Shown piece after piece: positions 18,651 through 37,269 of a stretch of 64,000 nucleotides of DNA. The stretch covers positions 13,000 through 76,999 of the forward strand of contig JBDSIR010000098.1 in NCBI GenBank assembly GCA_039917855.1. The letters are read 5' to 3'. Positions within the stretch are counted from its first letter, which is position 1. Each line of letters starts with the position of its first letter. A program made the translations under genes and the position numbers. The notes under the pieces were generated by a model. That model had not been told where the DNA came from. It did no database searches and saw only the letters and a list, made by a program, of their open reading frames with translations. Source of the DNA: Gemmatimonadales bacterium (GTDB taxonomy: Bacteria > Gemmatimonadota > Gemmatimonadetes > Gemmatimonadales > GWC2-71-9).

Positions 18651-18652
18651 CG

Positions 18653-19992: not shown

Positions 19993-20058
19993 CGTGGTTC
20001 CGGGAACGGAGACACCCCGGCGGCCGAGGCCGACGGGGTGTCCCAATTGCGCAGCGAG

Positions 20059-20304: not shown

Positions 20305-22047
20305 TTACCGGCAGTAAGCGCGGATCATGGTCTGCGTCCGCTGCTTGTAGGTGGCGATGGCAACCAGCTGCGGGTCGGCCGCGGTCGGGTTGATCGCCCG
20401 ACCGACGGTGAAGCCATTCCTCGCCTCATCGAGCATCCCGTCCATGCGCCGCGCGATGTCGCAGGACTTCCCCGCTTCGGCCACGGAGTCGTACTTCGAG
20501 GTGGTCTGCAGTCCCGCGTAGCCCATCAGGAAATTCGCGATCGGGGCGATGCGCTGGTCGGTCCCCGCCGCCGGAATAGCGACGTGGAGCAGCGTGTAGG
20601 CCGCCTCGGGGTCGGTCGGCGCGGTGGAGAGCAGGGTGCGCGCCGTGTTGGTGAAGTTGACCGCGATGGCGAGCTTCTGCTGGTCATCGCCCTTGGCCCC
20701 GACGAGGGCGCCGTAGCGCGCCGCATCGGCCCAACGCCTGCCGGCGAGGAGGATCTCGATGGCCGAGAGGGCCGGCGTGACGTCCGTCGAGTCGAGCGCG
20801 AGGACGCGATCGGTGGTCGAGAGCACGCTGTCGGTCATCAGGTTGACCGAGTACGCCTGCAGCAGCTGACCCACCAGGTTCTTGTTGGCGGGGAATCGCT
20901 CGGCCCCGGTCTTGGCCCACTTCAGGAACACCGGGCGCAGGTGCACGCTGTCCTTGCCCACCGCGCTGTCCGCGAAGACCGCGCCGGCGGTCACGGCCAA
21001 CCGGAACAGGAAGTTCGAGTCCGCCCGGGTGCTGTCGATCGCGACGATCTGCTCCAGCGACGACACCGAGCACGTGTACTTCTGCTGGAAGATGCAGGCG
21101 CTCGAGCGAAGATCCCACATCGCGGTGTCGAGCGAGTCGAGTGCGATGCCGCGATCGGCCACCTGTTCGGCGGCATCGGGCCGCCCGAGGCTCCGGAAGA
21201 CGCGCGAAGCCCGTTCGATGAGGGCGCGGTTGGTCGGGGCCGCCTCGATCATCTGCTGGTACTTGAGCACGATGTTCGCCGTGTCGCTCCTGGCGGTGTG
21301 CCAGTCGGCCAGCTCGCCCAGCGCCTTCAGCGCGAGAGAATCTCCCTTGACCGCAAGGTCGAGCTCGGGGCCGTACGCCGGGTCGGCGGCCGAGCGGGCC
21401 CTGGCCAACTGCGCCAGGCAATAATGGGCCAGACCGTTCGCCGGATGGACGCGCACGGCCTTGGTGGCCGACTCGGTCGCCTTGCGTGTGTCGGTGCCGA
21501 CCTGGTCCATGCACGCCTTCGCGTCGGCCTGGGCGCGGACGGCCAGCGTGAAGGCGACGGCGATGGCGTCGCCGAACTGCTGCAGCGTCTGCCCCGCTGC
21601 CTGGCGCACCGTCAAGGTGTTGCCGGGATCCTCCGCCCCGGCGGAAAGCCGGGTCCTGGCCCGCAACCGCCCTCCCTCACGCCCGAGTTCGGTGAACAGC
21701 ATCGTCCGCGCCTGCATCGCGGTGGTCAGGCGGTACGCGCTCTCGCGAGTGAGGATGGCGTCGGCCGGATAGGAGAACTCGGCCAGCGCGCGATTCATCT
21801 GATCGCGCGGGATGACAAAATACGCCGTCCCGACCACCCGCTCGAAGCGGGCCCGGAGCGCCGCCCCGACCGCTACCGCGCTGGCCGAATCCGCCGCGCG
21901 GTCGGTATAGGGCGTGGCCACGAGAAGCCGGGGCGCCGTCGAGGCCCCGCTCGACCGGCCGCGGTTGATCGGGATCTGGGCAGCGAGAGAGCCAACGCTC
22001 ACGCCGATGAGCGCGAGCATCGGGACGGTCCTGCGCAGCAGCGACAT
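20305..22047 (-). CDS. secreted helical-repeat (TPR-like) protein, unknown function
   Basis: 580-aa ORF with signal-peptide-like N-terminus MSLLRRTVPMLALIGVSVGSLAAQ. Ala/Leu-rich helical composition. No family recognised. Confidence 0.6.
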   Translation of the reverse strand: MSLLRRTVPMLALIGVSVGSLAAQIPINRGRSSGASTAPRLLVATPYTDRAADSASAVAVGAALRARFERVVGTAYFVIPRDQMNRALAEFSYPADAILTRESAYRLTTAMQARTMLFTELGREGGRLRARTRLSAGAEDPGNTLTVRQAAGQTLQQFGDAIAVAFTLAVRAQADAKACMDQVGTDTRKATESATKAVRVHPANGLAHYCLAQLARARSAADPAYGPELDLAVKGDSLALKALGELADWHTARSDTANIVLKYQQMIEAAPTNRALIERASRVFRSLGRPDAAEQVADRGIALDSLDTAMWDLRSSACIFQQKYTCSVSSLEQIVAIDSTRADSNFLFRLAVTAGAVFADSAVGKDSVHLRPVFLKWAKTGAERFPANKNLVGQLLQAYSVNLMTDSVLSTTDRVLALDSTDVTPALSAIEILLAGRRWADAARYGALVGAKGDDQQKLAIAVNFTNTARTLLSTAPTDPEAAYTLLHVAIPAAGTDQRIAPIANFLMGYAGLQTTSKYDSVAEAGKSCDIARRMDGMLDEARNGFTVGRAINPTAADPQLVAIATYKQRTQTMIRAYCR

Positions 22048-22118: not shown

Positions 22119-22193
22119 TGGGCGAAGAGGGATTCGAACCCCCGACATCCTGCGTGTAAGGCAGGCGCTCTGGACCAGCTGAGCTATTCGCCC
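22119..22193 (-). tRNA. tRNA-Val (anticodon TAC)
   Basis: Hand-folded cloverleaf: acceptor GGGCGAA/TTCGCCC, D arm GCTC..GAGC, anticodon stem CCTGC/GCAGG with loop CTTACAC, T arm GGGGG-TTCGAAT-CCCTC, discriminator A. 75 nt. Confidence 0.9.
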
Positions 22194-22400: not shown

Positions 22401-23336
22401 TTACAACCGCTGCCCCCCTGGGTCAATCGGCGGCGGCGGAGCCTCGTCGCCATCTGCGACCACCGTCTCCTCCGGGGGGAGGACCCACCCGGTATCGAGC
22501 GCCGCTCGGCGCGGCCGTTCCCGCCGGCGACGGAGACTCCACGCCAGTACGACGGCCAACGCCATGACCAGCCACCACCCGCCGGCGACGAACCAGAGCG
22601 CCCCACGGAACCGGCGTTTGGTCTCCTGCTGCCATTCCGATTCGAACCGGGAGAGGTCCCGCCCGGTCACCGTCTGCACGACCGAGCCGAACTCCTCACC
22701 TGCCGCCAGGCGCTCCAGCAGCGGCGCCAGGTCGCCGCCGGGGATCCGCGCGGCGAGCGCCGTCACCGCCGTGGCGGCCAGTCCGTATGCCCGGTCGACC
22801 ACCGGACCCGCGGCGCGGAGCTGGCCGTCGAGATCGCCCAACGATGGGATTCCGGTAAAGACGATGCTCAGATGAAGTTGGAGCGAGGCGAGGCGGTCCC
22901 ACTCCCCAGCGGCGAGGGCGGCGTACCCTTCGTCGAACCAGAGCGGCAACCGGCTCCTCACCCCGCCCCGGAGCACGAGATGCGCGAGCTCATGCCGGAG
23001 GGTACGCGGGAGATCCGGGAGATCGGCGCGGAGGATGATCGTTCGGCTCTGCGGAAAGGCCACGGCGGCCCCCCACCCCGGCGCCCGCCCCTGTGTAAGG
23101 ATCGCCATCTCACCCGAGTCGGCAACGACCACGAGCTGGAAGGGACCGGGCCCCCGTCGGCCGAAGCCGGGCCAGTTGGTGGGACGCTCGGCGAGCTCGG
23201 CGAGCGCGATGGCGGCGTCGATCCGGCCGGGCGTGGCGACGGCGCGCACCTCACCTACCTGCACCACCCGAAATGAATCGGCCGGGGCCGCCTGTTGTGC
23301 GGTCCCGGCCCACATCAGCAGCACCCAGCCGATCAC
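22401..23336 (-). CDS. putative zinc metallopeptidase (HExxH, MA clan-like) with C-terminal TM
   Basis: LRHELAHLVL HExxH motif. C-terminal hydrophobic helix WFVAGGWWLVMALAVVLAW. ATGA overlap with the upstream TPR gene. Confidence 0.55.
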   Translation of the reverse strand: MIGWVLLMWAGTAQQAAPADSFRVVQVGEVRAVATPGRIDAAIALAELAERPTNWPGFGRRGPGPFQLVVVADSGEMAILTQGRAPGWGAAVAFPQSRTIILRADLPDLPRTLRHELAHLVLRGGVRSRLPLWFDEGYAALAAGEWDRLASLQLHLSIVFTGIPSLGDLDGQLRAAGPVVDRAYGLAATAVTALAARIPGGDLAPLLERLAAGEEFGSVVQTVTGRDLSRFESEWQQETKRRFRGALWFVAGGWWLVMALAVVLAWSLRRRRERPRRAALDTGWVLPPEETVVADGDEAPPPPIDPGGQRL

Positions 23337-24211
23337 GCCTGGGTGGCGTGCCGCGGGGGCTCCTCGCCCTTCGCCACGAGTTCGAGCATCTCCTTACAGC
23401 GCTTCCCCCAGGGATTGAACTTGTTCGCCTTGTGCCCGTCGCTCCACGCCTGTTTGGCGCCGTCGGGGTCGCCCGAGAACCAGCGCGCGCGGCCGAGCTC
23501 ATACCAGGCCTCGATGAGGTTGGGGCCGAACTGGAGGGTCTTTTCGAAGAACACCTGGGCGTCCTCGAACATCTCGCGCTCGAGATAGACCAGGCCGAGG
23601 TAATAGTGTGCGTACAGGGTGGCCTTGCGGTCGTTGTCGAGCCGGATGGCCTTGGAGAGGTGCTCGATCGCCTCGCCGAATATCCGCTTCTTGAGGCAGA
23701 TGTAGCCCACGTTGATGCGGGCCAGCGAGTTGGCCGGCTCCTTCATCAGCACCTTGGAGAAGGTCGCGAGCGCGTCGTCGTAATCCTCGTGGAGCATCTG
23801 GGCCCAGCCGAGGAGCGACTGCGCCTGGATCTCGTTGGGCGAGAGAGTGAGCGCCTTTTCGAGCGCCTGGATCGCGCCGGAGTAATCACCGAGCGAGATG
23901 AGGCTCCACCCCTTCTCGATGAAAGTGCTGGCGCCGATGTGGTCGGTCTGGACAACCGGGCGCTGGCCGGTGAACATCGGCGCCGGGGCGGTGGCGGTGT
24001 CAGGCGCCTGCTGCTTGTACTTGTCCACCAGCTGGCGGATGTCCTCCTTCAGCTGGCCCAGTTCGGTGAGGGTCCCGTCCACCTGCTTGAACAGGGCGAT
24101 GATCTCGCGCTTCACGATCTCGCGCTCGGCGAACGCCTGCGCGGCGTCCAGCTTGGCGCTGATCTCCTTGTACTGCTGGCGCAGCGAGGTGACGAGTGAT
24201 TCAGCGCTCAT
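23333..24211 (-). CDS. TPR repeat protein with N-terminal coiled coil
   Basis: TPR repeats (e.g. AIQALEKALTLSPNEIQAQSLLGWAQMLHEDYDDALATFSKVL). Start reset to the ATG at 24211 (MSAESLVTSLRQQYKEI). Confidence 0.7.
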   Translation of the reverse strand: MSAESLVTSLRQQYKEISAKLDAAQAFAEREIVKREIIALFKQVDGTLTELGQLKEDIRQLVDKYKQQAPDTATAPAPMFTGQRPVVQTDHIGASTFIEKGWSLISLGDYSGAIQALEKALTLSPNEIQAQSLLGWAQMLHEDYDDALATFSKVLMKEPANSLARINVGYICLKKRIFGEAIEHLSKAIRLDNDRKATLYAHYYLGLVYLEREMFEDAQVFFEKTLQFGPNLIEAWYELGRARWFSGDPDGAKQAWSDGHKANKFNPWGKRCKEMLELVAKGEEPPRHATQA

Positions 24212-24218
24212 AAATGGA

Positions 24219-24689
24219 TCAGGCCGCACCCACGGACTTGAGGGCCAGCCGCTCCTTGGACGACAGCAGCCGCCCGGCATTGAGGATCACGACGGTGCGA
24301 CTGCCCTCGCGCACGAGAAGGCCGCTGATGTATTCGGCCGCGAGGCCGCGCACCAGCGGCGGCGGGGCGGTGATGGCGCCGCCGTCGATCCGGGCCACGT
24401 CCAGCACCTGGTCGACCACGATGCCGATGCGCTGACCATCGACGTCGATGACCATCATCCGGGTCTCTTCCCCGAGCTCGGCGCCCAGCGACAAGCGCTT
24501 GCGCAGGTCGATCACCGGGACCGCCACCCCCTCGAAGGTCACGACGCCTTCGAGGTAGTCCGGAGACTTGGGAAGGGCGGCGGGCCGCTCGTAACGGAGG
24601 ATGCGCTCGACCTGGAAGACGTTCAGGCCGAACTCCTGGCTCCCCACCCGGAAGCACACGATCTGGATCTCGTCGCCGGTGGTCGTCAC
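24219..24689 (-). CDS. cheW: chemotaxis coupling protein CheW
   Basis: QIVCFRVGSQEFGLNVFQVERIL...VTFEGVAVPVIDLRKRL...IGIVVDQVLDV, a typical CheW fold sequence. GTG start overlaps the upstream stop (GTGA). Confidence 0.85.
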   Translation of the reverse strand: MTTTGDEIQIVCFRVGSQEFGLNVFQVERILRYERPAALPKSPDYLEGVVTFEGVAVPVIDLRKRLSLGAELGEETRMMVIDVDGQRIGIVVDQVLDVARIDGGAITAPPPLVRGLAAEYISGLLVREGSRTVVILNAGRLLSSKERLALKSVGAA

Positions 24690-25111
24690 GTGGAGGCTCC
24701 CGCGCCGGCGAGTCGCTCGCCGAGGGCCTTGAGGTCGAGGATAGGGATGGTCCGGTCCTGCTGCCGCGCGAGTGCCGCGGCATAGGGGAGGCCCGGCAGA
24801 CCCGCCGCCGGAAAGACCTCCCCGCGCTGTACCACGAACGCATCGTCCACTTCGAGACAGATGGGGCGTCCGCCGGCCCGCACCAGGACGGTCGCGGTGC
24901 CGCGTTCGGCCGGAGCGGCGTGCCCGGCGAGGAAGGCGCCCAGGTGGAGAAGCGGCACCAAGCGACCCCGGGATTCGGTCACGCCTCGCATCGCGACGAG
25001 GAGGCTCGGGGCCGGGAGCACCGGACCGGGTTCGCCCACTTCCAGGACGTCGGCCGCGGGCAGTCCGAACCGGCGACCGTCGGCCTCGACCTCGAGCCAG
25101 GTGGCATTCAT
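24686..25111 (-). CDS. divergent CheW-like protein
   Basis: [21 protein letters not shown]...[21 protein letters not shown]...[11 protein letters not shown] resembles CheW but is shorter and degenerate. Confidence 0.6.
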
Positions 25112-26229
25112 GCGCGTCGCATCCGATCCAGTTCCTGGCGCACCCGGGCCGGGATGGCGGCCAACGCCATCACGTGATCCGCGCCCCCCGCCTCGAGCGC
25201 GGCCTTCGGCATGCCGTAGATCGTGGCGCTCTCCTTGTCCTGCGCGATGCCGATCCCGCCGGCGTCGTGGAGCGCGCGAAGCCCGACCGCGCCATCGCGC
25301 CCCAGTCCGGTCAGCACTACTCCCACCGCGCGCCTCCCGAACACTTCGGCGACCGACTTGAAGAGCGGATCGGCCGCCGGGCGGACGCCGTGCTCGGTGG
25401 GTCCCTGGTCGAGCACGAGGTAGAGCCCATCGTCGGCGGCGGTGACCCGCATATGATAATCGCCCGGCGCGATGTACGCGGTATCCTGCAGCACCGGCGT
25501 GTGGTCCTCGGCCTCGACGACCCGGTAATGGCTCTGTCCCGCGAGCCGCTCGGCGAGGGAGCGGGTGAACTTGGGCGGCATGTGCTGGACGATCAGGGCG
25601 GCCGCTCCCTGCCCTCGCTCGAGTTGGGGGACCAGATCGGCAAGGGCGCGGGGACCACCGGTCGACGCGGCGATCGCCACGCAGCGCTGGGCCCGGCCCG
25701 GCAGGGCAAAGACATCGTCGGAACTGGGACGCACCACCCGCCGCGGGCGGGCCAGCGGGCTCACGCGGAAGATATCGGCCGCGCGCGCGGCCCGGAGCGC
25801 ATTGAGGAGCCTGGGCTTGAGCACTTCGGCGATCTGCCCGGGGTCGCTGGTGGAGTCGAGCTCCTTGGGCACCAGTTCGACGGCGCCGAGTTCGAGGGCG
25901 CGAATGGCGGCGGCCGTGCCGGCGCCGGCATACGCGCTCACCACGACCACCGGACGCGGCATCTCGGACATGATGTATCCGATGGCGCCGAGCCCGTCGA
26001 GCTCCGGCATCTCGAGGTCCATCGTGACGAGGTCGGGGACCAGCTTGTGGATCTTGCGGAGCGCGTCCTGACCATCGCGTGCCACGCCGACGACCTGGAA
26101 CTCGCCGGACGCATCGATGATCTCACTCAGCACCCGGCGGAACAGGGCGCTGTCGTCGACCACGAGGACGGTGGGGCGTTCAGAGGGGTTGTTCACCGGT
26201 CGCCAGGGTGCGGATCCAGAGCGCGCCAT
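25108..26229 (-). CDS. cheB: chemotaxis response regulator protein-glutamate methylesterase CheB
   Basis: Receiver domain [28 protein letters not shown], then methylesterase [11 protein letters not shown] and TIYGMPKAA. Start is uncertain: ATG at 26229 or GTG at 26196. Both overlap the cheD 3' end. Confidence 0.9.
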
Positions 26230-26668
26230 CGGTCGCCTGCAGGCGGATGGAGCGCCCCACCGTGCCCCCCGTGGCCTCCGCGGTGATCGCCACGCCATGC
26301 TCGTGCAGCACCTGGCGCGAGGCCACCACATTCCGTTCCCCCATCTGGACCGCCCCCGACGGGGTCAGATTGCCGAACATCGAGGCCCCCCCGACCAATC
26401 GCGCGGTGACCCGCGTCCGTTCGGCGCCGAGGGCCTGCATCCGCTCGAGCAGGAGCGGGACGGCCGACTGGGGGAACTTCGCGGGGTTCTCGGCCGAACG
26501 GCTGAGGCTCCGGTTGGGGAGCAGAACATGCGCCATGCCGGCCACTTTGGCCACGGGATCGTGCAGGCAGATGGCCACGCAGCTCCCGAGACCGAGGGTG
26601 ACCATCTCACCATCGCCGGCGGCGGTGTTGAGGTCGGCGACCTTCACCACGATGGTGCCGGGCTTCAC
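26180..26668 (-). CDS. cheD: chemoreceptor glutamine deamidase CheD
   Basis: [29 protein letters not shown], the CheD catalytic Cys region. 162 aa. Confidence 0.85.
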
Positions 26669-27492
26669 GAAGCCCTCCGGAAGATCCGTTCGCGCACGTC
26701 GACCAGCTCCAGCCGCTCGCGGGCGGCGCCGAACAGGGTCTCGACCTTGCCGAGCAGGAGGTACCCCCCGGGAGCGAGCGCCTTGGCGAAGGCATCAAAG
26801 ATCCGGTCCTGACCATCGCGGTCGAAATAGATCACCACGTTGCGGCACACGACCAGGTCGAAGGGAGGGTTCGGCGCCGGCTCGCGCAGGAGATCCTGGC
26901 GCCGCACATCGATCATCCGCTGGAGGGTGGGCACCACCTGTCGGTCATCGATGCCGAGGGGGCGGAAGTACTTCGCGGTGAGCTCCGGCGGCATCTCGAT
27001 GAAGGCGGACGAGGGGTACCGGCCGGCGCGGGCGCGGGCCATCACGACCTCGTCGATGTCGGTGGCCACGATCCGCGACCGGGTGGCCCAGAGGTGCTTC
27101 CCCATCCGCTCCGACTCCTCCGCCAGGCACATCGCGAGGGTGTAGGGCTCCTCACCCGAGGAACAGCCGGCGCTCCAGACCCGGACCGCGCCCTCCCGCT
27201 GGGCGAGGAGGCCCGGGAGCACCAGCGTCCGGAGGCGTTCCCAGGTCTCCGGATTGCGATAGAGGCGGGTGACATTGATCGTCAGCGCATCCTTGAGCTT
27301 TTCGAGTTCGCCGGGATCGGAGCGGAGGAGCTCGCTGTAGGCCCCATAGCTCTCGGTGCCTCGGGCCCGCATACGCACCGCGATGCGGCGGCGCAGGACC
27401 TTCTCCTTGTAGTCGGCCAGGGCGAGCCCCGCCGCGCGGGTGATCTCACCCGTGAGCCGGGCGAAGCCCTCGGGATCGCCGGTGAGCATCAC
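26665..27492 (-). CDS. cheR: chemotaxis protein methyltransferase CheR
   Basis: N-terminal CheR helical domain (LADYKEKVLRRRIAVRM), SAM domain VWSAGCSSGEEPYTLAM and DLVVCRNVVIYFD. Confidence 0.9.
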   Translation of the reverse strand: MMLTGDPEGFARLTGEITRAAGLALADYKEKVLRRRIAVRMRARGTESYGAYSELLRSDPGELEKLKDALTINVTRLYRNPETWERLRTLVLPGLLAQREGAVRVWSAGCSSGEEPYTLAMCLAEESERMGKHLWATRSRIVATDIDEVVMARARAGRYPSSAFIEMPPELTAKYFRPLGIDDRQVVPTLQRMIDVRRQDLLREPAPNPPFDLVVCRNVVIYFDRDGQDRIFDAFAKALAPGGYLLLGKVETLFGAARERLELVDVRERIFRRAS

Positions 27493-29111
27493 GCCGACGC
27501 CGTCTCCAGCGCCTCGAGATTGGTCCGGGCGAGCTGATGGCCAGGATTGAGCTGCAGCACGCGCTTCCAGTGCTCCCGCGCCGTGGCGGTGTCGCGTTGG
27601 CGGAAGGCGATGTTGCCGAGCTTGAAGAACAGGTCGTCGCCCAGGTCGGGGGCGAGCTTGGCCGCGCGCTGGTAGGCCCCCGCGGCCTCCTCGTACTTGC
27701 CGCCGCGATAGAGGAGATCGCCCAGGTTCTTCGAGAGTTGCGGGAGCGTGGGGTCGTCGCGCAACGCCTCGCGGACCACCGACTCGCTCCGTTCGAGGTC
27801 ACCCATCAACTCGAGGAGGACGCCGAAGTTGTTGCGGAGCGCGGGGTGGTGCTGATAGCGCTGCACCCCTTCCTCCGCGGTGCGGAGGGCGTTCTCGAGG
27901 TCGCTGTCGAGCGCCTGCGCCAGCCCCATCGCCCAGAACCAGACGGCGGGGGGCTGCTTCTCCCCGTGCAGTTCGCGAGCACGCTGGAGCCGGCCGACGG
28001 CGACGTGGGGATCACCCTTCTTGAGGGCGGTGATGGCCCAACCGGTCATAAGCCGCGGGTCCTCCCGCGAACGGCTGACGGCCTCGCCGTAGCACGCCTC
28101 CGCGTCGGCGATGCGCCCCAACTGCTCCATCCCGAACGCCAGGTTGGCGAGCACCGCGGGCCGCGGTCCACCCCGTTCGCCGGCGACCTTGAGCGATTCC
28201 ACCGCATCGGCCCACTTGGCCTGCTTGAGCGAGATCAGCCCGATGAAGAACGGCGCGCTCGCCTCCGACGGTCGCAGGTCGGCCACGCGGCGGAACTCAC
28301 GCTGGGCCTCATCGAGCATCCCGGTCTTGAAGAAGGCGATGCCGAGATTGCGGTGTTCCTCGATGCGGGCGGCGTTGACCTTGGGCTCGGCGGAGACGGC
28401 GGAGCTCCCGGCGCGGTGCGCGAACCCGGCGGTGATGAGCCCGTAGAGCGACTTGCCGACCTCGAACTCGACGAGCCCCGAATCCTCGACCAGCTGATGG
28501 ATGTCGCGCTTGCCGTCGAGCAGCGGGACGATGCGCTCCTGCTCGGCCGAGAGCTGCACCTCCGACTCGGAAAGGTGCTTCTGGTCGACGGTGAAGATCA
28601 GGTCGAAGCTGGGGATCTTCTTTTCGATGAGGCTCCACTCATCGACCCGGCGGGCGCCCTCGAGAAGGAGCGACTCGGGATTGATCCTGACGAGGAAGTC
28701 CTGGCGCTCGGGCTTGACCCCGGCCTCGAAGTTGAACGTCCCGCTGGTCCAGGTGAAGAGGAAATAGACCGCTTCCTCGATCTGGACCCGCATGTATTCC
28801 TCGAGCTCGGGCCGCTTGATCGCAGCGATGTTCACCAGGATCTCGCCCAGCTTCTGTTCGCGGAACTCCTCCTGCATCGCGATGGCCTGCCCGAGCTGTT
28901 CCTCGGTGATCTTGCCGTTCTTGACCAGGATGTCGCCAAGGCGGTCGCGACGGTTGACGATGGACGCGTAGCAGATGCGTCCCTCGTCGAAGTAGATGTA
29001 GCCGAAGTTCTGCTTGTCTGCGACGGCGAGACAGCCGGTCTTCCGCCCCAGCGACAGCAGCTGGAGGACGTCCGGGAGGGACGCTTCCTTGAGACTCCCC
29101 TTGATGGCCAC
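27489..29111 (-). CDS. PATAN (DUF4388) domain protein with C-terminal TPR repeats
   Basis: N-terminus (M)AIKGSLKEASLPDVLQLLSLGRKTGCLAVADKQNFGYIYFDEGRICYA is the DUF4388/PATAN signature. The C-terminal half has multiple TPRs. GTG start shares 1 nt with the upstream stop (TAGTG). Confidence 0.75.
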   Translation of the reverse strand: MAIKGSLKEASLPDVLQLLSLGRKTGCLAVADKQNFGYIYFDEGRICYASIVNRRDRLGDILVKNGKITEEQLGQAIAMQEEFREQKLGEILVNIAAIKRPELEEYMRVQIEEAVYFLFTWTSGTFNFEAGVKPERQDFLVRINPESLLLEGARRVDEWSLIEKKIPSFDLIFTVDQKHLSESEVQLSAEQERIVPLLDGKRDIHQLVEDSGLVEFEVGKSLYGLITAGFAHRAGSSAVSAEPKVNAARIEEHRNLGIAFFKTGMLDEAQREFRRVADLRPSEASAPFFIGLISLKQAKWADAVESLKVAGERGGPRPAVLANLAFGMEQLGRIADAEACYGEAVSRSREDPRLMTGWAITALKKGDPHVAVGRLQRARELHGEKQPPAVWFWAMGLAQALDSDLENALRTAEEGVQRYQHHPALRNNFGVLLELMGDLERSESVVREALRDDPTLPQLSKNLGDLLYRGGKYEEAAGAYQRAAKLAPDLGDDLFFKLGNIAFRQRDTATAREHWKRVLQLNPGHQLARTNLEALETASA

Positions 29112-31108
29112 TAGCGGAGCTCCTCCATAAGGCGGTCCGCGAGGTCGGGCCAGTCCCAGACCATCTTCTCGGCGCTCTTCACGCCGCCCGAGGTCGTGAC
29201 GACGATGCCGCTGGAGCGTCGGGTGGCGCCGCTCTTCCGCTCGGCTCCCGAGAGCGGCCCCTCGAGCACCTCGCGCGCCAAGCCGGCGCTCGGGCTCACG
29301 TTCTGGGCCTCGGCGGCCCCCAGCAGGCGCTGCACCAGACCCAGCACGGCGCGGAGCGATTCGGCCGGACGCCCGGCCAGATACGCCGCCAGCTCCGTGT
29401 CGCTCGACCCGAGCCGCTCGTGGAGGGCACGTTCGACCACGCCAAGGCGCAGTTCGCGTTCGGGCGCGCCGAGGGAGACGACGAGCCCGCCTTCGAGCCG
29501 GCTCCGGAGCCGCTCCTCGAGGCCGGTCAGGTCGCGCACGGGGACCGCGCTGGTGAAGAGGAGCTGGCGTCCCTGCCCCAGCAGCTGGTCGAAGAGCCAG
29601 AAGAGCTCTTCCTGAGTGCGATCCTTCCCCTGCAGGAGGTGGATGTCGTCGATGCAGAGCGCGGCGACACGCCGGTAGCGCGCCCGCCAGACGGCGACGC
29701 GATCGCGCTCGATGGCCTCGATCAGTTCCTGGGTGAAGTCCTGCGCACCGAGGCAGGCGACCACGGCGCCTTCGCGTGCGGCGAGGGCATTGGCCACCGC
29801 CTGCAACAGGTGGGTCTTGCCGAGCCCGCTCCCCGCGACGATGACGTAGGGATTGTACTTGGTGGCCGGTTCCTCGACGACGCTGTGCGCGGCCCGCACC
29901 GCGATCCGGTTGGAGGGCCCTTCGACGAACTCCTCGAGCCGGTAGAGCGGCGAGGGTCCTGGTGGCGGGTTGGACCCGGCGCGCGCACGATCGGTGAGGG
30001 TGGTGGCTCCCGCGAGATCGTCGGGATCACGGAAAGCGGCGCTCCCCGCGAGCTGCGGCTCGAGCTCGACCGCCTCGGCCTCGAGTGCGCGAAGCCGGGC
30101 GACGTCCGCTTCGTATTGCAGGATCGCGGAGAGCGGATCGCCCGGGGACTCCTGCGCGAGGAGGGCGGAGAGACGCACGGTGCGGAACCCCTCGCCTTCC
30201 CAGCGCATGATGGCCTCGCCCACCCGAGTGCGCCACGCTTCGACCTGGGCGTTGACCGTGGTGGTGATGTCGCTGAGGAAGGAGTCGAACTCGCCGGGGG
30301 CGGTCGCCGACTCCTTGTCGGGCCCAGGTGAAGCGTTGGCGGGCGAGACGTTCGCGGGCGAGACGCCCACGCGACTCGCGCTCGGGGCGGGACCTCCCAC
30401 GAGCACTTCGCGGGCGGTGTCGGCATCGAGCGGGGTATCGCTGACCGACTGCCAGGCGATGAGGCGGTTGAGCCCGCCGATGAGCTCGCGGACGTTCCCG
30501 TCGATCAGTGTCGCCACGACCTCGAGCACGCCGGGGGGGAGGGTCTGGTTGCGCTCCTCGGCCTGGCGCCGGAGGATCGCGATGCGGGTCTCGAGATCGG
30601 GAGCGAAGACGTCGATGACGAGCCCGCCGGCGAAGCGCTGGATGAGCCGCTCATCGAGCGCCTCGATCTCGCTGGGCGGCCGGTCGCTGGACATCACGAT
30701 CTGGCGGCCGGCGGTGGTCATCTGGTCGACGAGCCGCAGGAGCTCGGACTGCACCTCGCGCCGGTGGGTGAGGAACTGCACGTCGTCGAGGAGGAGGAGG
30801 CCGGTCTCGGCGTATCGGCGCCGGTAGGCGTCGCCCTGGCCCGCGCCGATGGCGGCGTGGAAGGCTTCGACGAAATCGTCGCAGGTGATGTAGTCGACCG
30901 TGAGCGAGGGCGAGATGCTCCGGGCCAGATGCCCGACCGCCATCAGCAGGTGGGTCTTGCCCAGCCCCGGTCCGCCGTAGACGAAGAGCGGGTTATACGC
31001 CGATCCCGGTGACTCCGCCACCGCCCGCGCCGCGGTGACGGCGAGGCGGTTCGCGGCGCCGACGATGTAGACGTCGAACCGGAATCGGGGGTTGAGCTGG
31101 TCGGTCAT
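29111..31108 (-). CDS. tandem DnaA-type AAA+ ATPase (two DnaA domain-III modules; no domain I, no domain IV)
   Basis: Module 1 (aa ~6-236): [64 protein letters not shown]. Module 2 (aa ~388-616): [65 protein letters not shown] 150-aa linker separates them. The C-terminus has no helix-turn-helix DnaA-box-binding domain. Confidence 0.85.
30335..30364. repeat. 15-nt tandem duplication in the linker of the DnaA-like gene
   Basis: gttggcgggcgagac / gttcgcgggcgagac, encoding [10 protein letters not shown] on the coding strand. Confidence 0.85.
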
Positions 31109-31710
31109 CCGCTCACGGGCTGCGTCTGCGCGAGGCGCTTGAGGACCTGCTCCGAGATCCCCTTGAGGGTCTCGAACACCCCGCTGCCGTGGAGCGCGTC
31201 GCCGGCGAAGCTCTTCACGTTCCGGAAGTTGATCGCGTCATCGAGCTCCGCCTGGCTCAGGATGAGCTCGGGGGGAAGGTCCTGCTTGTTGTACTGGAAC
31301 ACCGTGGGGAAGGTGCGCACGTCCACGCCCTGTTCGAGCAGGTTGATCTGGAGATTCTGCAGGCTCTCGAGGTTGTCCTCGAGCCGGCGCGCCTGGCTGT
31401 CGGCCACGAAGACGACGCCGTCGGCCCCCTGCAGCACGAGCTTCCGGGTGGCATTGTAGTACACCTGCCCGGGCACGGTGTAGAGCTGGAACCGGGTGGT
31501 GAAGCCGGAGATCGAGCCGAGCTCGAGCGGCAGGAAATCGAAGAAGAGGGTGCGGTCGGTCTGGGTGGCGAGGGAGACCATCCGACCGCGCCGCGTGTCC
31601 GGCACGCGTCCGTAGATATAGTGCAGGTTCGTGGTCTTCCCGGACCGGCCAGGTCCGTAGTAGACGATCTTGCAGGTGATCTCACGGGCCGTGAAGTTGA
31701 CCAGGGACAT
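31105..31710 (-). CDS. mglA: Ras-like polarity GTPase MglA
   Basis: [58 protein letters not shown]. About 60% identical by eye to Myxococcus MglA. Start reset to the ATG at 31710. Confidence 0.92.
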
Positions 31711-31714: not shown

Positions 31715-32176
31715 TCAGCTCCCGAAAAGCGTACGGAGACTCGCGTTGAGCTCGCGCTCGAAGTCCGCGGCCAGCACCGGCTGGGGGGCGGGGGCCTCAG
31801 GGGCGGCCTCCGCAAGATCCTTGACGAGCTGCTCGAAGAACAACTGCACCAATCCGAGTGAGGTGTCGGGGCCGAAGACCACCAGCCCCACCCAGCGACC
31901 GCGGGGGGTCTCGAAGCTCGCCAGCAGGTGCGCTTGGTGAGGCCCCTGGTGCACGACGGTGGTGAACGGCTCCCACTTGAGCGTCCGGGCGAGCTCACTG
32001 GTCGAAGCTACGATACCGGCACCGAGTGCGGCGACCCCCATCACGTCCACCGCGCGGACGAAGCCGTGCTGGGCGACCACCTGTCCGGCCGTGGTCATCA
32101 GCAGGCAGAGCCGGGCCTGGCTTTCGGCCAGAAAGGACTCCATCGGGGCGGCGACCCAGGGCTCGACGGCGCGCAT
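31715..32176 (-). CDS. mglB: MglB (Roadblock/LC7 GAP of MglA)
   Basis: Roadblock/LC7-type sequence with the MglB-characteristic [14 protein letters not shown] segment and an acidic/Pro-rich C-tail. 4 nt upstream of mglA. Confidence 0.8.
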
Positions 32177-32529
32177 CAGCCGAGGATCTCCAGGGCACGG
32201 AGCATCTCGATCCGGGCGAGCCCGGCGTTGACGGTCCGTTCGGCGACGGCCACGAGGAGCAGGTCCTCGCCGTGCGGGGCCGCCAGGAGCGTCCCCCCCG
32301 AGGCGGTAAGATGCATGAATCGCGGCGCCCCCCGTCCCGCCCCTTCCACCGCCCGCCTGAGCCGCGAGGCGAGGCTCGCCGCCAAGGCGGCGACCGCGCT
32401 CCCCTTCATCTCATCCATCAGCGCCTCGGCCACCACCACTCCATCGGCGGCGGAGACCAGCATCGCGCCCCGCACCCCGGGCACGTGGGTCACCAGCTCG
32501 AGCGCGGCTTCGAAGGGGCTCGCGCTCAC
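32176..32529 (-). CDS. Roadblock/LC7 domain protein (MglC-like size)
   Basis: 117 aa from the GTG at 32529 (GTGA overlap with the upstream stop). VTHVPGVRGAMLVSAADGVVVAEAL...HLTASGGTLLAAPHGEDLLLVAVAE fits the Roadblock alpha-beta-alpha pattern. Confidence 0.6.
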   Translation of the reverse strand: MSASPFEAALELVTHVPGVRGAMLVSAADGVVVAEALMDEMKGSAVAALAASLASRLRRAVEGAGRGAPRFMHLTASGGTLLAAPHGEDLLLVAVAERTVNAGLARIEMLRALEILG

Positions 32530-33377
32530 GTGAGCGTCTCCATCCAGGCGCGGGCGGCGCGGGCGGCGCGTTCGGCGGCGACCTGCAACCGTCCGGTCGG
32601 CACGCTGGTATCCCGGACCACGAGGAGGAGCGCCTCCGAGCTGGCGGGGAGCAGGGCGGCGTTCCCTCCGGGCGATTCGAGCACCACGATCTCCCACTGC
32701 CCCAGCCCCAGAAGCTTCGCCGATCGCGCCGCTTCGCGCGAGACGCCGGCCAGGTGGGCCGCCACCACGTCGGCGACGTCGACGCCGTCGGGGGCGCGCA
32801 ACCCGCCGCCGAGTCGGAGCCCCTGCGTGTCGACCAGAAGGAGGCCGTTCTCCGCACCCTCGAGCCCGGCGAAGATCGCGGCACGGGCGGCGGCGTCATC
32901 TTCGGTGATCGGGGTCGCGGGTATGGCGGCCTGTGCGGGGGTGGGCGCGGGTACGGCGACCACCTGTCCCGCATCGGCGAGCGCAGCCCGGACCCGCGCG
33001 GCGGCGTGCCGGAGGCTGGCGTCGTCGGATGCTTCGCTGAGCGCGGCCTCGAGATGCTGGAGCGCCTCGGCGGCCCGACCGGCCTTGAAGAAGAGGAAAC
33101 CGAGCCCCTTGTGGGCCCCCGCGTGCTGGGGGTCGAGCCGAAGCGCCATGTCCCACTCGTCGAACGCCCGTTCGAAATCGGCCCGATCGGTGAGGATCCG
33201 GGCGAACAGGTCGTGCGCGTCGGGAAGATGGGGATACCGACCCAGCCCCTGGAGCGCCACCTTCTGCGCCGAGTCGAGCTGACCACGACGTCGAAGGGCC
33301 TCCCCCAGCGGGAGAAAGACGAGGCTCGCCGGATCGGCGGCCAGCTGGGCGGTGAGGGCGCGGATGTCGTCGCTCAT
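32526..33377 (-). CDS. TPR - Roadblock/LC7 fusion protein
   Basis: N-terminal TPRs (ALRRRGQLDSAQKVALQGLGRYPHLPDAHDLFARIL, AHKGLGFLFFKAGRAAEALQHLEAAL), an Ala/Pro linker, then a C-terminal Roadblock-like block (LLLVDTQGLRLGG..VAAHLAGVSREAARSAKLLGLGQWEIVVLESPGGNAALLPASSEALLLVV). Confidence 0.6.
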   Translation of the reverse strand: MSDDIRALTAQLAADPASLVFLPLGEALRRRGQLDSAQKVALQGLGRYPHLPDAHDLFARILTDRADFERAFDEWDMALRLDPQHAGAHKGLGFLFFKAGRAAEALQHLEAALSEASDDASLRHAAARVRAALADAGQVVAVPAPTPAQAAIPATPITEDDAAARAAIFAGLEGAENGLLLVDTQGLRLGGGLRAPDGVDVADVVAAHLAGVSREAARSAKLLGLGQWEIVVLESPGGNAALLPASSEALLLVVRDTSVPTGRLQVAAERAARAARAWMETLT

Positions 33378-34510
33378 CGCAGCAGCTTCAATGCTTCATC
33401 GAGGGCCACTGCCGCGGCGCGGGCCTGTTCGACCTGGGGCTCCAGCGCCTGTTCCTCCGGGGGCATATCGGAGATCCGGCTCCAGCGAAGCAGCTGGTCG
33501 GCCGCGTCGTGGAAGCGGCCCCCGACGGCCAGCGCGGTCCCGAGGTAACGTTGTCCCGCGGCCGAACCGGGATCGTACTGGAGGACGCGGCGGAAGGCGT
33601 CGGCGGCTTCGGGGGCTCGGCCGAGGCCGAGGAGCGCCCGCCCGAGCACAAGGTGGGTCATCGGCTCGAGCGGATGGGTAAACATCACTTCCTGTGCGGC
33701 CAGCAGGGCACCCTGGGCATCTCCCTCCGCGAGCCGGTCCTCCGTGCGCGCGATCAGGATCGCGAGTTCGCGGCCTCCGGTGGCGGCGGTGGGACGGTGA
33801 GGATGCTCGAGCCCCACCACCCCGGCGGCGGCGAGTCCGAAGAGGGTCTTGGCCACATCGAATTCGGCGCGCCCGATCGCCAAGGCCACTTCGCGCACGT
33901 CGCGCTCGCCATCGATCACCGCGAGGATCGACCACTCGTCGGGATGGAGGTCGAGTGAGCCGCCATCGGCGGCCGAGAGCTTCGGCACGATGCCGAGGTG
34001 CGGGATGCGGGTCTGGATCTGCGACCACTCGTCGATCCGGCGCGCGCCCTCCATGAGGACCGCCTCGACCGGGATCCTGACGTCGACCTCGGCGAACTTC
34101 TCGGACGGCGCACCCTCCTCGAAGGAGAAGTATCCCTCCGACCAGCTCATCAGCTCGAAGACGACCGCCTCGACCTGGGCCCGCACCTGGCGCTGCAGTT
34201 CGCGTTGGGACACCGCACCGATGGCCACGAGCACGTCGCCCAGGCGCCGCTCGTCACCAGCCTTCTGCATATCGCGGGCACGATGCAGATCTTCTTCGCG
34301 CACCTTGCCCGCCTGCAGCAGCATGGTGCCGAGCGGATGTGGGTTCGACTTGATCTCGGCGAAGACCACGGCGCCCCGGTCGAACACGACCGTGCCGGCG
34401 TTCTGGCGCAGCTGGGAGGAGACGCGCAGGACCCCGGTCTTCCGGCTCAGGTCGAGCAGCTGGAAGACATCGTGGATGCCGAGTTCCTTGAGCGGTCCCT
34501 CGATCGCCAT
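33374..34510 (-). CDS. PATAN (DUF4388) domain protein with C-terminal TPR repeats
   Basis: MAIEGPLKELGIHDVFQLLDLSRKTGVLRVSS...GTVVFDRGAVVFA signature; C-terminal TPRs. Confidence 0.75.
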   Translation of the reverse strand: MAIEGPLKELGIHDVFQLLDLSRKTGVLRVSSQLRQNAGTVVFDRGAVVFAEIKSNPHPLGTMLLQAGKVREEDLHRARDMQKAGDERRLGDVLVAIGAVSQRELQRQVRAQVEAVVFELMSWSEGYFSFEEGAPSEKFAEVDVRIPVEAVLMEGARRIDEWSQIQTRIPHLGIVPKLSAADGGSLDLHPDEWSILAVIDGERDVREVALAIGRAEFDVAKTLFGLAAAGVVGLEHPHRPTAATGGRELAILIARTEDRLAEGDAQGALLAAQEVMFTHPLEPMTHLVLGRALLGLGRAPEAADAFRRVLQYDPGSAAGQRYLGTALAVGGRFHDAADQLLRWSRISDMPPEEQALEPQVEQARAAAVALDEALKLLR

Positions 34511-34512: not shown

Positions 34513-37269
34513 TTAGCCCTCCCGCCCGGCGAAGATGTGGGCCAGGTCCTTCGCCGAGCGCGCATTCTTGCGCGAGGCGGTGGCGTAGTCACTGGATGGG
34601 GCGAGCTGGATGACCCGCTCCCAGGCCTCGACGGCTTCAGGATAGCGGCGATCGCCGTTGCGGGCGGAGCCCAGGTGATACCAGGCCTCGACCCGTTCAG
34701 GCTCGAAGCGGAGCACCCGCGAGAATGCTTCGGCGGCCTTGTCGGTGCGGCCCTGGTCGAGCAGGGAGCGGCCGAGGAGCACCAGCGCGTCGAAATCGTA
34801 GGGATCGGCCTCGAGGAGGGGGATGAGCAGCTCGAGCGCCGTGCCGGCCTGCCCGGTACGGCGGTAGAGATCGCCCAGCGCCAGCGTCGCCTGCGCGAAG
34901 GTCGGCAGGAGGTCGAGCGCATGTTCGTAGGAGGAACGCGCCTCAGGATGCCGTCCCTCCTGCTCCTGCAGGTGGCCGAGCTCGAACCAGACCTGCGGGA
35001 TCGCGGAGTCAAGCTCGATCGCCGCCTGGTACGCGGCGATCGCACCGCCGGCGTCACCGAGGCGGGCACAGACCGCGGCCTGCAGTTGGAACAGATCGGG
35101 GCGTCCGGGGGCGCGGGCCTGTGCGACGCGGACATACTCGAGCGCGCCCAGGGCATTGCCGCCATCCATCCGCGAGCGGGCGCCCACCACCAGCGCCTCG
35201 ACATCGGTGGGGCGCGCTTCGATCAGCGCCTCGGCGAGGGGGGCCGCCTCGGCGCTCCGTTCGAGGGCGAGGAGGGCGCGCACCTCGCCCAGTCGGGCGT
35301 CGGCGTCGTCGGCGCGGAGGAGGCGCGCTTCGCGGAAGCGTTCGAGCGCTTCGCCGTGGAAGCCACGGCGGGTGAAGACCTCGCCCTGAAGCACGGCGGC
35401 GCGCACCGGGTCGGCTCCACGCTGGAGGGCCCGGGCGACCTCGGCGGCGGCCCGGTCGAGGAAACCCTTGCTGAGCTGATCGCGCGCCATGGCGAGGTAG
35501 TCGTCGCCTGGGACGGCCGGGACGGCCGTCCCCACACCGGCCGTCCCCCCACTGGCCCTCCCCATGCCGGCAGTCCCGACCGCGGCACCCGCGGCGGCGG
35601 ATGTCGCCGGCTCCAGTTCGGTGAAGAGCTGGTCGAGGAGCCGCTGATCGAAGTTGAATTCTTCGCCCACTTCTTCGGCGTACACGTCGGCCGAGATCTC
35701 GGGAGCGATCGAGATGTGCGGATCCTCGTACTGCAGATCGATCGCGAGCGCGTACTTCTGGGGCACGTAGTACGGTTCGAGCTCGAGGGCGCGCTTGGTC
35801 TCGCGGAGGGCGCCGTCGAAGTCGCCGAGGTGGCTGAGCGTGAAGCTCAGGTTGTAGTGGGCAGAGGCGAGCTTGTCGTCGGCCTCGACGGCGCGGGCGA
35901 AGGCGTTCTTGGCGTCGGCGTACCGCTTGAGCTCGACCAGCACGAGGCCGATGCCGTTCCACGCCACCGCGTTCTGGGGATGGTCGGCGAGGACCTGCCG
36001 ATAGGCCTCGAGCGCCAGCTGGAAGCGGCGTTGCTGGAACAGGAGGAGCGCGAGGTTGAGCCGGGCGGCCGCGAGGTCGCGCTTGCCGCGGAGTGCGGCC
36101 TGGAAGGACTCCTGGGCGCCTTCGATGTCATTGAGCTGGCTGCGCAGGACGCCGAGGTTGTTCCAGGCGAGGCCGTAATTGGGATCGTTCGCGGTGGCGC
36201 GCGCATAGCCCGCGGCGGCCTCGTCGCGCCGGTTGGCCTGGTGGAGACAGACGGCGCGCTCGTTCCAGAGCTTGGGACTGTCGGGGAATTCCTGGACCAG
36301 TCCGTCGTAGAGCTCGAGGGCGGCCGCGAGGTCGCGGCGGATGAGGTGCACCTCGGCCATCGCCTGCAGCACCAGCCGGCGATCCTCGCCGCTGTCGAGG
36401 GCCAGACGATATTCGCGCAGGGCTTCGACGTAGTAGCCCTTCTGCCGAAAGGCGAGGCCGAGGTTGAAATGCGCCAGCATCTCCCCTTCGGCCACCTGGG
36501 GGCGCATCGCCTCGAGGGTGGAGCGCCGGCGGATGCCCTGATTGCGGCGTTCCTCGAGCGACAGGTTGGCCTGGGCGCGGCCGAGGGTGGGATTGAGCGC
36601 GAGGGCGCGCTTGGTCGCGGCGCGCGCCTGGTCGTGCTGGCCCATGTCGCCATAGACGAAGGCGAGCAGGTAGTGCGCGTCGGCATTGTCGGGATTGAGG
36701 CGGACGGCGCGGGCCAGGGCCGCGAGCGCGGCGTCATTGAGTCCGCGATTGTACAGCGCCTCGCCATAGTAGAACTGGGCGATGGAGCTCTCGGTATCGC
36801 GTTCGGCGGCCCGACGGAACCACTCGCTGGCTTGCTCCACCCCGCCGCGGCTCTTCTCGGCGAGGCCGAGCTGGATGAGCGCCGGGATATCGCCGGGGTG
36901 GCGGGCGAGGAGGGCCTCGAACTCTTCGATGGCCTCCGCGTGCTGACCGAGGGCTGCGAAGACGCGGCCAAGCTCCCAGCGGGCAGCGCGGTCGTCGGGC
37001 TGACGGCGGAGCGCTTCGCGGAGCTCGGCGACGCGGGTGTCGTAGTAGCCGGTGTTCTGGTAGGCGATGGCGAGGTTCGCCTGCGCCACTCCCATCTTCG
37101 GATCGAGCTCGAGGGCGCGGGTGAATCCCGTGATCGCCTCCGGGATCAGCCCTTTCTGGTAATACAGAACGCCGAGGTTGTTGTGGGCCCCGGCGTCCGA
37201 AGGGTCGATCCGGCGCGCGAATGAGCGAAGGACCGCGAGGTCGCGTTCCGACGGCGCGGGCCCGGTCAT
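34513..37269 (-). CDS. large TPR repeat protein (918 aa)
   Basis: Canonical TPR units throughout (e.g. AHNNLGVLYYQKGLIPEAITGFTRALELDPKMGVAQANLAIAY, AWNNLGVLRSQLNDIEGAQESFQAAL). The 895-aa plus-strand ORF is its antisense shadow. Confidence 0.8.
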   Translation of the reverse strand: MTGPAPSERDLAVLRSFARRIDPSDAGAHNNLGVLYYQKGLIPEAITGFTRALELDPKMGVAQANLAIAYQNTGYYDTRVAELREALRRQPDDRAARWELGRVFAALGQHAEAIEEFEALLARHPGDIPALIQLGLAEKSRGGVEQASEWFRRAAERDTESSIAQFYYGEALYNRGLNDAALAALARAVRLNPDNADAHYLLAFVYGDMGQHDQARAATKRALALNPTLGRAQANLSLEERRNQGIRRRSTLEAMRPQVAEGEMLAHFNLGLAFRQKGYYVEALREYRLALDSGEDRRLVLQAMAEVHLIRRDLAAALELYDGLVQEFPDSPKLWNERAVCLHQANRRDEAAAGYARATANDPNYGLAWNNLGVLRSQLNDIEGAQESFQAALRGKRDLAAARLNLALLLFQQRRFQLALEAYRQVLADHPQNAVAWNGIGLVLVELKRYADAKNAFARAVEADDKLASAHYNLSFTLSHLGDFDGALRETKRALELEPYYVPQKYALAIDLQYEDPHISIAPEISADVYAEEVGEEFNFDQRLLDQLFTELEPATSAAAGAAVGTAGMGRASGGTAGVGTAVPAVPGDDYLAMARDQLSKGFLDRAAAEVARALQRGADPVRAAVLQGEVFTRRGFHGEALERFREARLLRADDADARLGEVRALLALERSAEAAPLAEALIEARPTDVEALVVGARSRMDGGNALGALEYVRVAQARAPGRPDLFQLQAAVCARLGDAGGAIAAYQAAIELDSAIPQVWFELGHLQEQEGRHPEARSSYEHALDLLPTFAQATLALGDLYRRTGQAGTALELLIPLLEADPYDFDALVLLGRSLLDQGRTDKAAEAFSRVLRFEPERVEAWYHLGSARNGDRRYPEAVEAWERVIQLAPSSDYATASRKNARSAKDLAHIFAGREG

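Follow-up and report, generated by a model that had tools for sequence, protein, structure and literature searches.

What is an ATPase core of the replication initiator family, present twice in one chain and parted from its DNA-binding domain, doing beside the gene for a Ras-like polarity GTPase? The question is raised by a 64,000-nucleotide stretch of DNA from a Gemmatimonadales bacterium (assembly GCA_039917855.1, contig JBDSIR010000098.1, positions 13,000–76,999), hereafter the window. An open reading frame with an ATG start (29111..31108; all features of the window given below lie on the minus strand and are numbered within it) encodes a tandem DnaA-domain-III protein of 665 amino acids, here called DnaA2x. 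The gene begins within the stop codon of mglA (ATGA), and its own stop shares one nucleotide with the GTG start of a gene for a PATAN-TPR protein (TAGTG); both overlaps had been reported in the initial annotation of this DNA. Within the DnaA/Hda family of AAA+ proteins, DnaA2x is new in both architecture and genomic context, and we infer that it is not the chromosomal replication initiator. The initial annotation had taken it to be undescribed, and no description of DnaA2x, of a tandem DnaA or of a link from DnaA to PATAN or MglA was found in the literature searched.

The whole of the recognizable similarity to DnaA lies in domain III. Two stretches of DnaA2x matched Bac_DnaA (PF00308; E = 4e-97), while neither Bac_DnaA_C (PF08299) nor DnaA_N (PF11638) was matched in the Pfam scan, even at E ≤ 1. 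The NCBIfam model of DnaA (TIGR00362) aligned to the protein twice, each time only over profile positions 102–335, which correspond to domain III; residue 3 of DnaA2x fell on profile position 102, such that the chain begins at the domain III lead-in. Taken alone, module 1 (residues 1–246) scored 267 bits with the DnaA model and 86 with the Hda model, and module 2 scored 204.5 and 85 bits, so that the DnaA scores were 2.4–3 times higher. Since the DnaA score of each module lies far above its Hda score, both modules derive from DnaA proper. Module 1 matched domain III of Bacillus subtilis DnaA (8bv3) with an E-value of 2e-61, and its AlphaFold model superposed on that structure with a TM score of 0.95, a root-mean-square deviation (rmsd) of 1.4 Å and 44% identity (Foldseek). 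The two modules shared 33% identity with each other (E = 1e-41, one gap in 233 columns). The composition given in the initial annotation, two domain III modules without DnaA_N or Bac_DnaA_C, was thus borne out by Pfam and TIGR00362, and every motif string quoted there was present in the protein.

Searches for the missing DnaA domains were negative throughout. With canonical DnaA domain IV and domain I as queries, tblastn gave no hit anywhere in the window, nor in any of 88 related loci. A helix-turn-helix was looked for in the tail of DnaA2x and none was present in the AlphaFold model, in which only a short motif of the tail escapes disorder. Pfam, tblastn and AlphaFold therefore agreed with the reported absence of domain I/II and of the DNA-binding helix-turn-helix. 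A DNA-binding domain hidden in the tail or between the modules was ruled out because there was no Pfam match, no PDB fold match and no tblastn hit with domain IV.

The main AAA+ motifs were found in both modules. Module 1, a DnaA-type AAA+ domain (residues 5–236; 30401..31096), was modelled with a predicted local distance difference test score (pLDDT) above 90 and contains Walker A K51, Walker B D108/D109, sensor 1 D142, arginine finger R158 and sensor 2 R207. Module 2 is a diverged DnaA-type AAA+ domain (residues 388–616; 29261..29947) with Walker A K431, Walker B D487/D488, arginine finger R537 and sensor 2 R586 and with a degenerate sensor 1 (A521). Conservation was counted in an alignment of 99 DnaA2x members. 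The Walker A lysine was kept in 97 of 99 proteins in either module, the Walker B aspartates in 98 and 96 (D108/D109) and in 96 and 93 (D487/D488), and the sensor 2 arginine in 95 (R207) and 94 (R586). The arginine finger of box VII was retained in 78/99 proteins in module 1 and in 93/99 in module 2. For sensor 1, D142 was found in 86/99 proteins, and the corresponding position 521 of module 2 varied between A, S, P and T. The helices of the initiator-specific insertion were predicted in both modules (H76-88/H92-100 and H455-467/H471-479; AlphaFold), and in each module both aligned without gaps to the insertion of DnaA. Both modules thus retain the residues for ATP binding, for hydrolysis and for contact with the ATP of a neighbouring protomer.

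The remainder of the chain was more elaborate than first described. The region between the modules had been called a helical linker of 150 amino acids, which holds for its helical part. It starts with a disordered and unconserved spacer of about 35 residues (residues 239–272; 30293..30394; pLDDT <50), which contains the 15-nucleotide tandem duplication noted earlier (30334–30365, 2.1 copies with a period of 15; TRF), and only then passes into a folded, conserved helical domain that is specific to the family (residues 273–385; 29954..30292; consensus DEFGxFLSEV..WRxRVxEAILRW..EGxRTxRLExLL...FRDPD). Predicted in isolation, this domain reached a pLDDT of 90.4 and a predicted template modelling score (pTM) of 0.76; it matched no PDB fold (best E = 1.9) and no Pfam family. 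The tail had been described as a short basic and hydrophobic peptide. The basic part was found as a flexible Ser/Gly/Arg-rich tether (residues 620–645; 29174..29251; pLDDT <50), but the tail also includes a strongly conserved C-terminal motif (residues 646–665; 29114..29173), [RK]S[RH]EK[MIV][VI]WxWPxxx[DE]R[ILV][ILV]E[ED]xx-COOH. Within it, E647 was conserved in 92, K648 in 93, W653 in 94, P654 in 88, R659 in 89 and E662 in 92 of the 99 proteins, and in 91 of them the chain ended exactly two residues past the acidic pair. Mean pairwise identity was 0.56 for module 1, 0.50 for the helical domain, 0.49 for module 2 and 0.57 for the C-terminal motif, compared with 0.37 for the tether and 0.18 for the spacer. 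These values indicate purifying selection on both modules, the helical domain and the C-terminal motif, and not on the spacer. Both the region between the modules and the tail thus probably contain functional elements in their own right, beyond a linker and a tail. A role of the motif as a tether for CheR or CheB, like the NWETF peptide of chemoreceptors, was considered and dropped, as the motif persists where Che genes are missing.

DnaA2x belongs to a large family. Full-length homologues with 90% identity and 100% coverage were found by protein search, and a word-indexed search yielded over 120 clusters of full-length homologues (645–680 amino acids) at ≥59% identity. An exhaustive search among representatives of 50%-identity clusters added dozens of further full-length members within the best 150 matches, down to approximately 30% identity. 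With patterns taken from an 11-sequence subset of the inter-module domain alignment, a scan of one genome per species detected the DnaA2x-type inter-module domain in 338 GTDB species; the best 80 of these were almost all Gemmatimonadales/Gemmatimonadota. A profile search with the inter-module alignment recovered only six short fragments, including one from Longimicrobium. To a deeper branch of the family belongs a protein whose deposited source is 'Candidatus Cloacimonetes bacterium 4572_55'. Module contigs of the Gemmatimonadota type also occurred in bins labelled Solirubrobacterales, Acidimicrobiia and Myxococcales (L026, L029, L050 and L065); two of them, L026 and L029, had equal length (4070 bp) and the same match coordinates in differently labelled bins. 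These contigs probably reflect mis-binning rather than a real taxonomic spread.

In a neighbour-joining phylogeny, module 1, module 2 and canonical DnaA formed three clades, and the subtrees of the two modules were topologically congruent. The matching topologies point to a tandem architecture that is ancestral to the family. DnaA domain III-like stretches were also seen at one end of five long proteins, P0183 (1990 amino acids), P0193 (1876), P0231 (1373), P0249 (1368) and P0310 (839), with 37–50% identity to a module 1 (that of the window or of P0180); P0310 additionally carries zinc-ribbon domains. By sequence, these would be further cases in which the ATPase core of DnaA is put to a non-canonical use. 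One metagenomic protein of 357 amino acids (P0234) combined an N-terminus like canonical DnaA domain I with a DnaA2x-type module 1 (58% identity), followed by low-complexity sequence, and is likely a chimeric assembly.

The family was as constant in its gene neighbourhood as in its architecture. Directly upstream of DnaA2x lies mglA (31105..31710), for a Ras-like polarity GTPase that matched Myxococcus xanthus MglA (6hjh) with an E-value of 8e-72 and is a true orthologue; directly downstream lies the gene for a PATAN(DUF4388)-TPR protein of 540 amino acids (27489..29111; PF14332, E = 1e-36, together with TPRs). The order from a large TPR gene through PATAN, three Roadblock genes, mglA and DnaA2x to this second PATAN/TPR gene was identical in 80 genomes wherever the contig was long enough. 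The 4-nucleotide overlap with mglA was found in 68 of 75 loci and the 1-nucleotide overlap with the PATAN gene in 68 of 73; DnaA2x is translationally coupled to the gene for the PATAN-TPR protein and, in most lineages, also to mglA. A counterpart of the 540-amino-acid protein was located downstream in every related locus that reached far enough. Che genes were missing from a few related genomes (e.g., L032 and L053), in which the TPR and peptidase genes remained. Neither the operon nor the 10 kb around it contained a replication gene in the 88 related loci, and within the window there was no dnaN and no DnaA domain IV.

Distant members showed which of these neighbours can be lost. The whole MglA arrangement was kept around P0160 and P0177 (35% identity to the window protein). 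In the locus of P0188 (36%), the order was rluD-DnaA2x-PATAN/TPR-peptidase, and MglA and Che genes were not found. MglA was not detected in the locus of P0201 either, where only a Roadblock gene stood upstream. P0262 (1168 amino acids, 30%) was followed by a PATAN-TPR and a TPR protein, and in the Cloacimonadota-like P0180 and P0284 (33%) DnaA2x stood at the end of a series of Che genes, TPR and PATAN with no MglA or Roadblock. A large TPR gene was, in distant lineages, the next gene upstream either of DnaA2x itself or of the PATAN gene beside it. Since these lineages lack MglA or Che and still have PATAN and/or TPR, the constant neighbour of DnaA2x is a PATAN and/or TPR protein, and MglA and Che are common but dispensable. 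The statement that the gene is wired into a GTPase/Che operon therefore held for the conserved coupling overlaps and did not extend to the divergent lineages, and MglA or Che was ruled out as an obligatory partner.

Some of these distant loci contained additional genes. In the Cloacimonadota-labelled lineage, a 272-amino-acid P-loop protein resembling AAA_22/STAND was encoded between CheA and a CheW-domain gene (L081, 4035–4853; L087, 3743–4561), in the same cluster that ends in TPR-PATAN-DnaA2x. In the lineage of P0163, two bactofilin genes (L088, 3765–4667) were situated approximately 5 kb upstream of the TPR and DnaA2x genes, and a 200-amino-acid gene without a Pfam match stood just after DnaA2x.

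Database labels hide the family. Relatives are deposited as 'DnaA/Hda family protein', as 'ATP-binding protein' or, wrongly, as 'chromosomal replication initiator protein'. The whole protein scored 467 bits with TIGR00362 against a cut-off of 343.9 by summing two half-length matches, each module alone remaining below the cut-off, and it is because the two domain III matches sum above the cut-off that 'chromosomal replication initiator protein DnaA' labels appear at JGI. Where origins are predicted from dnaA in Gemmatimonadota genomes, a mislabelled DnaA2x could lead the prediction astray. Membership in the Hda or DnaC/IstB families was ruled out by model scores below the cut-offs (Hda TIGR03420, 165 bits for the whole protein against 194.8 and approximately 85 per module; IstB NF038214, 94.5 against 200; DnaC NF005931, 36.8 against 357). 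A PADLOC scan gave only a P-loop-level match of 23 bits and PHROGs gave no phage signal for DnaA2x; together with the position between rluD and mraW, which is fixed across the phylum, this ruled out a defence system or a phage origin.

Compared with the systems that it resembles, DnaA2x combines familiar parts in an unfamiliar way. With domain III of DnaA, both modules share the fold, Walker A and B, the arginine finger of box VII, sensor 2 and the initiator-specific helical insertion. Unlike DnaA, DnaA2x has neither domain I/II nor the domain IV helix-turn-helix that binds DnaA boxes, carries two modules per chain, to which a helical domain and a C-terminal motif are added, and is encoded in an MglA/PATAN/Che operon rather than beside dnaN or oriC. 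Hda (HdaA) is likewise an AAA+ protein of the DnaA family that has no DNA-binding domain and acts through protein–protein contacts and its arginine finger, but it is a single, proteobacterial module of approximately 230 amino acids with an N-terminal β-clamp motif and another genomic context. Two AAA+ modules per polypeptide are also found in the tandem type II proteins p97/Cdc48, NSF and ClpB. Those proteins, from the classic and related clades, assemble as stacked closed hexamers, whereas the modules of DnaA2x belong to the initiator clade, and the whole chain matched p97 poorly (Foldseek; TM score ≤0.28, rmsd >19 Å). The initiator-specific insertion of DnaA favours open helical assemblies.

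As in the MglA/MglB systems of Myxococcus and Thermus (RomR/RomX, MglC), mglA lies beside Roadblock/MglB genes and a Che-like system, an arrangement known from Frz-MglAB, but here there are three Roadblock genes and at least five TPR-containing proteins. We know of no DnaA-like ATPase in the described MglA/MglB systems, and the literature searched contained none. The nearest parallel to an ATPase working with PATAN is found in cyanobacteria (PixE/PixG of Synechocystis with PilB, and PatA at the divisome of Anabaena), where PATAN proteins and an oligomeric ATPase act downstream of Che-like systems, often near mglA/mglB, and the outputs are spatial, namely pilus polarity or division. In the present locus the ATPase is of the DnaA type and not of the PilB type, the PATAN proteins carry TPRs instead of receiver domains, and no pilus genes were found within the window.

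We favour, with about even confidence, the explanation that DnaA2x is a tandem-duplicated paralogue of the DnaA ATPase core, without origin binding, that serves as an ATP-dependent assembly switch or scaffold in a signalling module associated with polarity or division. An ATP-dependent oligomeric switch or scaffold would fit the conservation that the 99 members show, in either module, for Walker A and B, the arginine finger and sensor 2. ATP binding would drive a head-to-tail, DnaA-like association, either by pairing of module 1 and module 2 of one chain, between chains or in both ways. The helical domain and the tethered C-terminal peptide would recruit the adjacent PATAN/TPR proteins, and MglA-GTP/MglB and, where present, the Che pathway would feed into the assembly state or read it out. 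The output would most likely be spatial, in the organisation of a pole or a division site, a view that we take because of the known roles of MglA and PATAN proteins.

Peptides bound by TPRs end at a fixed distance from the free C-terminus. The fixed distance of the motif from the chain end, the flexible tether and an operon with at least five TPR-containing proteins together suggest, as a lead, that the C-terminal motif docks as a peptide in a TPR groove. For PATAN, the domain has been described as an output domain that binds the N-terminus of PilB1 (bioRxiv 10.1101/2021.06.11.447907), and PatA interacts with divisome proteins (PMC7380572); by analogy, the former may serve as a precedent for PATAN acting with an oligomeric ATPase and the latter for PATAN at the division site. 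The position of the module next to the dcw division and cell-wall cluster agrees weakly with a spatial output, because two tRNA genes separate the two units.

Several points weigh against this explanation. We infer ATP binding, oligomerisation and partner binding alike from conserved residues and gene order, and the whole-chain arrangement of domains in the AlphaFold model was not confident (pTM 0.48), so an arginine-finger contact between module 1 and module 2 of one chain is a proposal. In two distant members, P0188 (L083; SPDGVAARVLLEA) and P0201 (L085; ATDGALNQAFLEA), the Walker A motif of module 2 was lost (columns ~470–480 of the family alignment) and module 1 was intact; a two-site mechanism would therefore not be universal. 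Module 1 is conserved like a working DnaA, which could reflect a continued interaction with DnaA or DNA. In the locus of P0163 (37% identity), an 867-amino-acid TPR protein was encoded immediately upstream and PATAN was not detected. Finally, because two tRNA genes stand between the module and the dcw cluster, a gene order conserved in the phylum may be all that keeps the module close to division genes.

The similarity of module 1 to DnaA raises the alternative that DnaA2x controls replication, which we regard as unlikely. DnaA2x would co-assemble with DnaA through the AAA+ interfaces and either use its arginine fingers to trigger hydrolysis of DnaA-ATP, as Hda does, or sequester or cap DnaA filaments, thereby coupling replication initiation to the polarity/division module. 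The identity of 44% and the superposition at 1.4 Å between module 1 and B. subtilis DnaA domain III, the scoring of both modules as DnaA proper and not as Hda or DnaC, the conserved arginine fingers and sensor 2 and the adjacent cell-division genes are all compatible with such a role. So is a K-x-R motif kept in module 2 (K495 in 56/99 and R497 in 78/99 proteins), which aligns with, and which we take to be equivalent to, the basic motif for single-stranded DNA in DnaA of E. coli and Aquifex. Module 1, however, has Glu (81/99) where E. coli has the Arg of the basic motif. A conserved N-terminal β-clamp-binding motif (QL[SD]LF or QLxLxL) was not found in the family alignment; the window protein begins with DQLNPRF, yet neither the Gln nor the pattern is conserved, and the family consensus MxxxLxPxxxF corresponds to a normal start of domain III. 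The Hda scores also remained below the cut-off, no replication gene accompanied the operon in the related loci, and the genes to which DnaA2x is tightly coupled, in a conserved manner, are those for PATAN/TPR proteins and MglA. The link to DnaA or Hda regulation that had been suggested at first thus received no specific support.

In a more far-reaching version, which we consider rather improbable, DnaA2x would physically connect the cycle of the replication initiator with a Ras-like switch for polarity or division. The faces of DnaA2x that resemble DnaA would co-assemble with DnaA-ATP or sense it, while the helical domain and the C-terminal peptide would hold PATAN/TPR-MglA complexes. The type genus of the Gemmatimonadota can reportedly reproduce by budding. 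If this connection were real, replication status would set the identity of the pole or bud site in Gemmatimonadota, or the reverse, and a paralogue of the initiator would form a cell-cycle checkpoint of a kind not known before.

Slightly less probable again is that nucleic acid serves as the anchor, with ATP-bound DnaA2x filaments binding single-stranded DNA or RNA through the pore-side helices of the AAA+ modules and tethering or positioning the PATAN/MglA/Che complex on the nucleoid, analogous to the ParA-like ATPases that position chemosensory arrays. The gap-free initiator-specific helices of both modules, the basic K-x-R of module 2, the basic flexible segment ahead of the C-terminal motif and the location of the ATPase inside a Che operon would suit this. 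However, DnaA needs oligomers to bind single strands, and it is domain IV that nucleates these oligomers on double-stranded DNA; in DnaA2x this domain, or any other that binds duplex DNA, is missing; the helical domain, moreover, looks rich in acidic residues by inspection of its sequence, and the family persists without Che genes. That two dnaA-like genes were fused by a frameshift or an assembly error, or that the gene is a decaying dnaA duplicate, has a negligible probability: only the unusual architecture and the 15-nucleotide spacer repeat speak for it, and one genuine gene is confirmed by hundreds of full-length homologues of the same architecture, among them the more than 120 independent clusters of 645–680 amino acids and the dozens of 50%-cluster representatives in the best 150 matches (several at approximately 30–35% identity), by the spread over 338 GTDB species, by the conserved catalytic motifs and by the co-divergence of the two module clades.

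Further from DnaA2x, all genes of the window from approximately 55.9 kb down to 3.7 kb were encoded on the same strand. In the direction of transcription, the series starts with tilS, ftsH, folP, cdaA, a TMEM260-like gene, ileS and rluD. The cdaA gene, for a diadenylate cyclase of the CdaA type (cyclic di-AMP synthesis; 50087–50890), lies between folP and the TMEM260-like (protein O-mannosyl-transferase-like) gene, upstream of ileS. The signalling genes begin with CheW (~40212–40919) and CheY (~39803–40243), both assigned by eye from the translation, and continue, based on Pfam, with CheA (37903–39861), CheC (37274–37894), the large TPR protein of 918 amino acids (34513–37269), a PATAN-TPR protein of 378 amino acids (33374–34510) and three proteins matching PF03259, namely a TPR-Roadblock protein (32526–33377), a Roadblock/LC7 protein (32176–32697, the true start probably being further downstream) and an MglB-like Roadblock/LC7 protein (31715–32176). 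After MglA, DnaA2x and the 540-amino-acid PATAN-TPR protein follow CheR (26665–27492), CheD (26180–26668), CheB (25108–26331), two CheW proteins (24686–25111 and 24219–24689), a TPR protein (23333–24280) and Peptidase_MA_2 (22401–23336), all assigned by Pfam.

Downstream of the peptidase come tRNA-Val(TAC) (22119–22193), an open reading frame of 580 amino acids without a Pfam match (20305–22047) and tRNA-Asp(GTC) (20058–20133). The 580-amino-acid gene was kept after Peptidase_MA_2 in 51 related loci, and its counterpart in L084 had only faint TPR matches. The series ends in the complete dcw cluster (3684–20046), with mraW, ftsI, murE, murF, mraY, murD, (ftsW), murG, murC, ftsA and ftsZ; at the expected position of ftsW lies an open reading frame of 639 amino acids without a Pfam match (9512–11431). 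Peptidase_MA_2, the 580-amino-acid gene and mraW followed in every locus reaching far enough, and the placement of the module between ileS-rluD and the dcw cluster recurred in related and distant loci.

The locus may have been glimpsed before. The neighbourhood of mglA and PATAN genes has been documented (PMC4316618), and in a 2014 survey of prokaryotic small GTPases, GAU_1409 of the cultivated Gemmatimonas aurantiaca was listed as 'PATAN>MglA>-PATAN>', the gene in between being shown as '-'. That gene sits at the position that DnaA2x occupies here and is, by position only, a candidate DnaA2x.

In the favoured explanation, DnaA2x is an initiator-type ATPase that was apparently repurposed for spatial signalling: a conserved, phylum-wide family with a duplicated core, in which DNA binding was dropped and which became tied to the genes for PATAN/TPR proteins and MglA. 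The known ATPases of the DnaA family either bind origins as initiators (DnaA) or inactivate these initiators (Hda), and to our knowledge DnaA2x would be the first tandem AAA+ protein of the initiator clade. For PATAN domains, which are poorly understood outside cyanobacteria, DnaA2x is a concrete candidate partner.

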